Source of the DNA: Acinetobacter phage vB_AbaSI_3
Sequence record: PQ382034.1
Reading direction: 5' to 3' (one strand)
DNA: 64,000 nt
Under the pieces are notes generated by a model that was not told the DNA's origin, ran no database searches, and saw nothing but the letters and a program-made list of their open reading frames with translations. The position numbers and the translations under genes were made by a program. The first letter of the stretch is position 1. Each line of letters starts with the position of its first letter. Positions 12,223 through 12,297 of the stretch are shown in pieces.

Positions 12223-12297
12223 TGGTACTCGTGACCAGAGTCGAACTGGTAACCTAAGACTTTAGAGGTCTCTGCTCTACCATTGAGCTACACGAGT
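12223..12297 (-). tRNA. tRNA with anticodon CUA (amber/UAG-reading suppressor-type)
   Basis: clean hand-folded cloverleaf: ACTCGTG-TA-GCTC-AATGGTA-GAGC-A-GAGAC-CTCTAAA-GTCTT-AGGTT-ACCAG-TTCGACT-CTGGT-CACGAGT-A-CCA. Confidence 0.65.

Follow-up and report, generated by a model that had tools for sequence, protein, structure and literature searches.

Phage suppressor tRNAs have been studied mostly in uncultured gut phages with an altered genetic code. In these phages (crAss-like, Lak and others), which use code 15 with TAG translated as Gln, the low-GC genome encodes a tRNA with a CUA anticodon and uses TAG least often of the three stop codons. Standard-code phages which already carry a suppressor tRNA were described by Borges et al. 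as a state in which the suppressor is present before recoding. The Ralstonia jumbo phage RsoM2USA, a cultured lytic phage with the standard code, has one reported CUA ‘suppressor’ among its many tRNAs. The laboratory amber suppressors (supE, supF, T4 psu1+) each arose from a recognisable parent tRNA by a single mutational step in the anticodon.

In T4-like phages of Acinetobacter, the existence of a CUA tRNA is already known. The gene is annotated in GenBank and listed, without experiments, in the literature of 2014, 2022 and 2023. The ZZ1 genome paper of 2014 reports Sup(CTA) in ZZ1 and a homologue in Acj9 (PMC4177764), and tRNAscan-SE called Sup(CTA) in DLP1 and DLP2 (PMC10051250). In about 38 GenBank records the gene is mostly labelled as tRNA-Pyl, as tRNA-TERM or as a tRNAscan-SE call or Sup(CTA), and the record of ZZ1 notes a ‘possible suppressor tRNA’.

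Here we analyse a stretch of 64 000 nucleotides (the window) from Acinetobacter phage vB_AbaSI_3 (PQ382034.1). The window belongs to a Lazarusvirus, a T4-like phage of Acinetobacter baumannii (Straboviridae, Twarogvirinae), and shares about 99% identity with MD-2021a, Berthold and PhaR5, among others. A first-pass annotation, made from the sequence alone, had presented the CUA tRNA as a discovery, which it is not. New in this work are a comparison of the stems across genera, tests on stop codon usage and a candidate site of action at the junction of a 78-residue open reading frame (ORF78) with alc.

Results

Structure of the CUA tRNA

The tRNA gene is located at 12223..12297 (−) and is 75 nt long. 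ARAGORN assigned the anticodon cta to exactly this interval. The Rfam model RF00005 matched it over the full length with 71 bits (E = 1.3e-14; the gathering score is 29) and zero non-canonical pairs, which is the highest score among the ten tRNAs of the cluster. The cloverleaf is also the minimum-free-energy fold. The 7 bp acceptor stem (ACUCGUG/CACGAGU) is followed by U8 and A9, and the D arm (GCUC-AAUGGUA-GAGC) contains G18G19. The anticodon arm (GAGAC-CUCUAAA-GUCUU) has U33, C34 U35 A36 and A37. A variable loop AGGUU, the T arm (ACCAG-UUCGACU-CUGGU), the discriminator base A73 and an encoded CCA complete the molecule. The anticodon itself occupies 12263..12265 (−), which is TAG on the plus strand and CUA in the tRNA (tRNA position 33 in the ARAGORN output).

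Stems of 7, 4, 5 and 5 bp, U8, G18G19, a T loop of the form UUCRA and a 7-nt anticodon loop with U33 and a purine at position 37 are the features of a canonical elongator tRNA, and all of them are present here. The anticodon CUA, which is the same in five lineages, is complementary to UAG, as would be required of an amber suppressor. These data, together with the conservation of the gene (see below), confirm that the molecule is a genuine canonical class-I tRNA with a CUA anticodon. Every feature listed in the first-pass annotation is present: a clean cloverleaf with a 7 bp acceptor stem and standard D and T arms, the loop CUCUAAA containing U33 and A37, and A73 followed by an encoded CCA. tRNAscan-SE accepted the gene not only in the close relatives DLP1 and DLP2 (PMC10051250) but also in two GenBank records (tRNAscan-SE 2.0.12). 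Since the gene is 98.7–100% identical in about 38 independently sequenced genomes, a base-calling error at the anticodon is excluded.

The proposal that the CUA tRNA did not arise recently from the phage's own tRNA-Trp (9146..9220) was also borne out. The two share 55% identity, which is background level, as the identities to all nine other tRNAs of the cluster range from 49% to 64%, with the adjoining CAU tRNA (64%) as the best match. High identity outside the anticodon was found with none of the nine, and the CUA tRNA is thus not a recent anticodon mutant of any of its neighbours.

The tRNA cluster and its surroundings

The CUA tRNA heads a cluster at 9146..12297 (−), which was delimited with ARAGORN, Rfam and the annotation of the 99% relative Berthold. 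The order is Sup, CAU, Cys, Leu(UAG), three ORFs, Thr, Asn, Ser, Pro, Phe, one ORF and Trp. The adjoining tRNA with a CAU anticodon (Met or Ile2; 12139..12213, (−); ARAGORN) has its D-arm sequence in common with the CUA tRNA. The tRNA with a UAG anticodon (11899..11976; ARAGORN), which the first-pass annotation had cited in support of an effect on termination, is an ordinary tRNA-Leu reading CUN codons and has nothing to do with stop codons. The tenth tRNA of the cluster, tRNA-Phe(GAA) at 9607..9679 (−), was missed by ARAGORN and detected by Rfam with 49 bits; in the annotation of phage fHyAci03 it is marked as a possible pseudogene. The sets of tRNAs change fast among these phages.

Directly upstream of the CUA tRNA there are two overlapping hairpins (12304..12368, (−)). 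One is a terminator-like stem (12343..12368, (−)) and the other a perfect AT-rich stem of 18 bp (12304..12349, (−)), which ends 6 nt before the 5′ end of the tRNA. In Acj9 this inverted repeat surrounds a tRNA-Tyr(GUA) (L055, 4317..4409), with the CUA tRNA directly downstream, and in PhT2 (L003, ~3800..3900) it encloses a tRNA-like insert which is called by neither ARAGORN nor Rfam. The hairpin may be what was left behind when a tRNA-Tyr was lost, or a stem for precursor processing.

The phages of this group also encode a set of tRNA repair functions, consisting of RnlA, Rnl2, a kinase at the pseT position and 57B. A separate observation concerns the DNA polymerase gene 43, which is split into 43A and 43B with about 2 kb of small ORFs in between (MD-2021a 113963..118650, L007; also in ZZ1 and Ac42).

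Conservation of the CUA tRNA in Twarogvirinae

In Stupor, Konradin and Abraxas the CUA tRNA is 100% identical within surrounding 601 nt that are only 91% identical. Downstream of gene 57B, the corresponding cluster of PhT2 (Hadassahvirus), AB1I1M-1, ZZ1 (Zedzedvirus) and Acj9 (Acajnonavirus) likewise contains a diverged CUA tRNA; that of ZZ1 was missed by BLAST. We compared the six distinct sequences, which represent five lineages, pair by pair. Canonical pairing is found in 125 of 126 stem-pair cells, although 16 of the 21 stem pairs have changed on both sides and only three are invariant. The acceptor stems are wholly different between Lazarusvirus, Hadassahvirus/AB1I1M-1 and ZZ1/Acj9. Constant in all six variants are the anticodon CUA, A37, A38 and A73. 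The anticodon loop has the form C(U/C)CUAAA, with CUCUAAA in five variants and CCCUAAA in ZZ1, which carries C33 in place of the near-universal U33. Other peculiarities are a bulged U in the 3′ strand of the acceptor stem in PhT2 and AB1I1M-1 (Rfam 52.5–52.7 bits), and an A–G mismatch at pair 27:43 in Acj9. An encoded CCA is present in four lineages and missing in Acj9.

The invariance of CUA, A37, A38 and A73 despite the turnover of the stems indicates selection for a tRNA which would read amber codons. The versions of the individual lineages could be diverged orthologues or could have replaced one another repeatedly; in both cases a tRNA for amber codons has been retained at this site for a long time.

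No CUA tRNA is present in Acj61 or Ac42. The D arms of the CUA and CAU tRNAs are near-identical, and in fHyAci03 a deletion between them has left a non-folding chimera (L004, 4001..4075), which is annotated as ‘tRNA-Met, possible truncation’ and whose acceptor halves are unable to pair. This phage is a natural knockout of both tRNAs. The CUA tRNA is therefore accessory, having been lost in one of these phages and being absent from the other two.

A pattern search of 185 579 species genomes for a cellular parent tRNA with the same anticodon arm gave 33 matches, none of which is a tRNA. As no cellular tRNA in these genomes shares the arm, the gene appears to belong to a phage lineage of tRNAs rather than to be a recent capture from a host. 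In IMG/VR, the arm is shared only by two phage tRNAs with a CAU anticodon (L012, 12596..12671, and L014, 67..141). These two unrelated tRNAs have the exact anticodon stem GAGAC/GUCUU and the flanking bases of the CUA tRNA. This match could be due to chance or could hint at descent from a phage tRNA-Ile2/Met. As a claim, such a descent was dropped, two CAU tRNAs being too little to build on.

Amino acid identity of the CUA tRNA

U35 and A73 are the only identity features common to all six variants and, because the acceptor stems differ wholly between lineages, no consistent identity set for a synthetase can be named beyond A73. U35 and A73 are the main determinants for LysRS of Escherichia coli. 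Normanly et al. in 1990 reportedly observed that synthetic CUA tRNAs built on the bodies of tRNAs for Arg, Asp, Ile2, Thr, Met and Val insert mainly lysine. With U35, A73 and a generic class-I body, the CUA tRNA has the sequence hallmarks, and no more than these, of a tRNA that could be charged by LysRS, like the suppressors which Normanly et al. reportedly placed in class III.

The identity set of E. coli GlnRS comprises a weak 1:72 pair, G73, G2:C71, G3:C70, G10 and U38. An origin from tRNA-Gln, as in supE, was rejected, as the window tRNA has A73, C2:G71, U3:A70 and A38, and only G10 and U35 fit. Its 1:72 pair is A:U, which is replaced by G:C or C:G in the other lineages. The CUA tRNA also lacks the long variable arm that is normally required by bacterial TyrRS. 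Our guess from the sequence is that lysine is the most likely amino acid and glutamine the next. Lysine is favoured because A73 and U35 are read by E. coli LysRS, and generic CUA tRNAs with A73 reportedly take lysine in that organism.

Many GenBank records label the gene as a pyrrolysine tRNA. This is the name which ARAGORN gives to any cta anticodon, and nothing else speaks for it. In a tRNA-Pyl the anticodon stem has 6 bp and the variable loop 3 nt, the D loop is tiny and contains no GG, and the T-psi-C sequence is missing. The anticodon stem of the CUA tRNA has 5 bp and its variable loop 5 nt, the D loop AAUGGUA contains G18G19 and the T loop is UUCGACU, and a tRNA-Pyl is thus ruled out on structural grounds. 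Furthermore, no PylRS is annotated in the genome of MD-2021a, and we know of none in Acinetobacter. The chance that the label is right is practically nil.

Stop codon usage

The full genome of MD-2021a (99% relative of the window) was rebuilt from four fetched parts, and its 244 annotated genes were used for the analysis. Among these, 153 end with TAA, 80 with TGA and 11 with TAG (4.5%). The first-pass annotation had stated correctly that the phage itself uses TAG as a stop codon. The gene for the uvsW-like helicase (50486..51997, (+)) ends with TAG, which is followed by six codons and TAA; readthrough would add seven residues. Two further TAG-ending genes of the window are on the minus strand. 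A 92-residue protein is encoded at 5004..5282 (−), equivalent to MD-2021a 138833..139111; its TAG overlaps an early promoter at the −35 box (GTTTAC), and the run-on would be 16 codons. The gene for the head-completion protein gp4 (16081..16536, (−); product name from annotated relatives) has a run-on of three codons.

From the tRNA and the use of TAG as a stop, programmed readthrough or manipulation of host termination had been suggested. The stop codon data do not bear this out. No TAG-interrupted gene was found in the window: each of its 15 open stretches bridged by TAG either is out of frame with a real gene or runs antisense to one. A codon-usage score likewise revealed no in-frame TAG inside genes in the full MD-2021a genome or in 100 kb of ZZ1; the scored TAG bridges (MD-2021a, 100 kb of ZZ1, 50 kb of Ac42) were only antisense artefacts or neighbouring annotated genes. 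The median run-on in MD-2021a is nine codons after TAG, compared with eight after TAA and six after TGA, which gives no sign of selected back-up stops after TAG. On the early strand, TAG terminates 7 of 144 genes in MD-2021a and 7 of 141 in ZZ1, both of which carry the tRNA, and 5 of 94 in Ac42, which does not. The share is about 5% in each, and a depletion of TAG in carriers was thus not detected among these three genomes. In addition, the early-strand genes ending with TAG in ZZ1 and in the Lazarusvirus genome are different genes.

In a sample of the host A. baumannii, four TAG stops were counted among 42 genes, too few to separate host from phage. The sample comes from CAKLQF020000002.1 (L056), which carries the kdp, cyo and pga operons, prfA-hemK and genes for ribosomal proteins. 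This record is labelled ‘Acinetobacter phage MD-2021a’ but its contigs are bacterial chromosome, and it is mislabelled.

A recoding of the type of code 15 was also considered and rejected. There is no in-frame TAG inside conserved genes (window, full MD-2021a, 100 kb of ZZ1), and TAG remains a terminator in 11 of 244 genes. A full-length RF2 is missing, the only related protein being a GGQ-less fragment of 78 residues, and no tRNA synthetase is annotated in MD-2021a. The phage uses the standard code, and the CUA tRNA has left no detectable mark on its stop codon usage.

A release factor-like protein in the tRNA cluster

The fragment, here called mini-RF, is encoded at 11300..11536 (−) and matches the Pfam family RF-1 with 45.8 bits. 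It aligns to residues 226–291 of E. coli RF2, which form domain 3. In all six Twarogvirinae lineages examined the GGQ motif is replaced, by RRW (window), SNW, TWG or GHY, or is deleted. As the catalytic GGQ is lost, mini-RF should not be able to hydrolyse peptidyl-tRNA. The protein belongs to a family of GGQ-less phage proteins of 70–80 residues (PHROG 20323), and short relatives with an xSNW[IVL]N motif occur in metagenomes. Within tRNA clusters this dead RF domain is conserved. A word-indexed protein search retrieved only two relatives, and an exhaustive search was therefore used. A literature search on this protein gave no result.

The first-pass annotation had counted the RF-like protein among its arguments for an effect on termination. 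However, mini-RF is also encoded by Ac42, which has no CUA tRNA, and by siphophages of Pseudomonas and Xanthomonas. A linkage between the protein and the tRNA was rejected for this reason. Of the two, mini-RF may be the more original object of this block.

Early promoters and the ORF78-alc junction

On the minus strand of MD-2021a (L005–L008) we found 24 promoters of the form GTTTAC-N16–19-TATAAT, many of them in a GATAxGxCT/AGxCxTATCAAAT hairpin. Promoter-early stem-loop cassettes (PeSLs) are known from T4-type phages (PMC2839356, PMC4122927), and the hairpin-embedded early promoters of MD-2021a appear to correspond to these. At five of the 24 copies the −35 box is preceded by TA, which generates a TAG and explains some of the TAG stops of the phage.

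One of these TAG codons terminates ORF78, which has a hydrophobic amino terminus and is located directly upstream of alc. The junction TAG lies outside the window, at OV298649.1 41274..41276 (region OV298649.1 40725..41510).

Discussion

We lean, with some reserve, towards the view that the CUA tRNA is kept by selection in several genera of Twarogvirinae as a reader of UAG, that is, as a host-charged, partly effective suppressor which is tolerated. The tRNA is probably transcribed with its cluster and processed like its neighbours. It would then be charged by a host synthetase, most likely with lysine or else with glutamine, and would compete with RF1, making UAG a partly leaky stop in the infected cell. 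Such a suppressor would be tolerable because only about 4.5% of the genes end with TAG and the run-ons are 3–16 codons. With efficient suppression, fewer TAG stops or closer back-up stops would be expected in carriers, and neither is seen. C33 in ZZ1, the bulged U of PhT2 and AB1I1M-1, the A–G mismatch of Acj9 and the unlike acceptor stems of the lineages also speak against this view. Any selective benefit would be of an accessory kind.

The tRNA might instead serve the programmed readthrough of a single gene, by which the small membrane-anchored ORF78 is fused to the transcription inhibitor Alc. In Lazarusvirus, Hadassahvirus and AB1I1M-1 the TAG-terminated ORF78 shares its reading frame with alc, across linkers of 63, 66 and 60 nt respectively, all of them multiples of three and free of TAA and TGA. 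The sole extra in-frame stop is a second TAG in Hadassahvirus, and an in-frame, stop-free linker is found in only 4 of 74 comparable gene pairs of the genome. However, the linker is one of the 24 copies of the early promoter, many of which lie within a PeSL-type hairpin cassette, and the junction TAG consists of the two bases before the −35 box and the first G of the box, as at four other copies. In two further carriers the arrangement does not hold: the ORF upstream of alc ends with TAA and is out of frame in ZZ1, and ends with TAG but is out of frame in Acj9. A junction of like kind arises by chance in Ac42, which lacks the suppressor, where gene 43B ends with a TAG and the next small ORF follows in its frame. 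Nor is there an evident reason why Alc should be anchored in the membrane, and we regard the fusion as a rather improbable purpose of the tRNA. A scheme in which tRNA and GGQ-less RF domain form a module for the tuning of termination is very improbable. The dead RF would weaken the host release factors, for instance by occupation of the A site or by titration of PrmC, the methyltransferase of GGQ, and the tRNA would read through UAG. This would yield proteins made only during infection, for example a fusion of ORF78 with Alc, anchored in the membrane, in three genera, or the pair might act as a counter-defence against translation by the host or by a competitor.

Decoding might also not be the function at all. 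The RNA could serve as a decoy for an anticodon nuclease of the host or could inhibit such an enzyme, or it could be a processing or regulatory element of the tRNA operon, by analogy with the T4 cluster and its stable RNAs C and D. Its loop CUCUAAA differs from the tRNA-Tyr loop CUGUAAA only at position 34, and a tRNA-Tyr gene is located directly upstream in Acj9. A non-decoding role would also agree with the lack of a target in the phage genome and of an effect on stop codon usage, with the oddities tolerated in some lineages (C33, the acceptor bulge, no encoded CCA in Acj9), and with the full tRNA repair set, which fits a conflict over tRNAs. A decoy, however, needs neither an invariant A73 nor a CCA encoded in four lineages nor a canonical architecture of the acceptor, T and D arms. 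To our knowledge no Acinetobacter nuclease targets such an anticodon loop, and this explanation, inferential throughout, seems unlikely to us. We give little credence to the idea that the tRNA is neutral, a passenger or relic that acquired its CUA anticodon by drift and survives only because it does no harm. At least one isolate, fHyAci03, can dispense with the gene, which the deletion has joined to the adjoining tRNA; Acj61 and Ac42 do not have it, and tRNA sets turn over quickly in these phages. Drift, however, would have changed the anticodon or broken the stems, whereas the anticodon, A37, A38 and A73 are unchanged in five lineages despite the replacement of both partners in 16 of 21 stem pairs, and the gene is conserved above its flanks. 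The ORF78-Alc readthrough, a non-decoding role and a neutral relic are each less well supported than a tolerated suppressor.

A conserved CUA tRNA in cultured T4-like phages of a priority pathogen is of interest for several reasons. Some carrier phages are used for therapy, where amber readthrough in infected cells would matter. The standard-code genomes together with the natural deletion mutant fHyAci03 offer a tractable system for the charging of the tRNA, the residue inserted and the benefit of a suppressor before recoding, as in the model of Borges et al. It is as an experimentally tractable case, rather than as a discovery, that the CUA tRNA has its value.

Compared with the recoded gut phages, Lazarusvirus likewise has a phage-encoded CUA tRNA, a low-GC genome and TAG as the rarest stop. 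It differs from them in having no in-frame TAG, a TAG stop in 11 genes and a gammaproteobacterial host with the standard code; it also lacks the ‘code-change module’ of full-length RF2 and tRNA synthetase, and the identity elements of its tRNA are unlike those of tRNA-Gln. Like the laboratory suppressors (supE, supF, T4 psu1+ and the synthetic CUA tRNAs of Normanly), the window tRNA is a class-I tRNA with a CUA anticodon, and by analogy charging by the host and competition with RF1 would be expected. Unlike them, it has no recognisable parent (49–64% identity to co-resident tRNAs and no match of the arm to a cellular tRNA) and is a natural, conserved allele. Neither RsoM2USA nor its tRNA is related to those of Lazarusvirus, the common trait being a predicted suppressor in a phage with the standard code. 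The published T4-like phages of Acinetobacter (ZZ1, Acj9, Maestro, DLP1/DLP2, Berthold, KARL-1 and others) carry the identical or a near-identical gene in the same cluster; with respect to the gene there is no difference, and the reports go no further than listing it. Among the described systems, the CUA tRNA of Lazarusvirus would thus correspond to the state of Borges et al. in which a suppressor precedes recoding.
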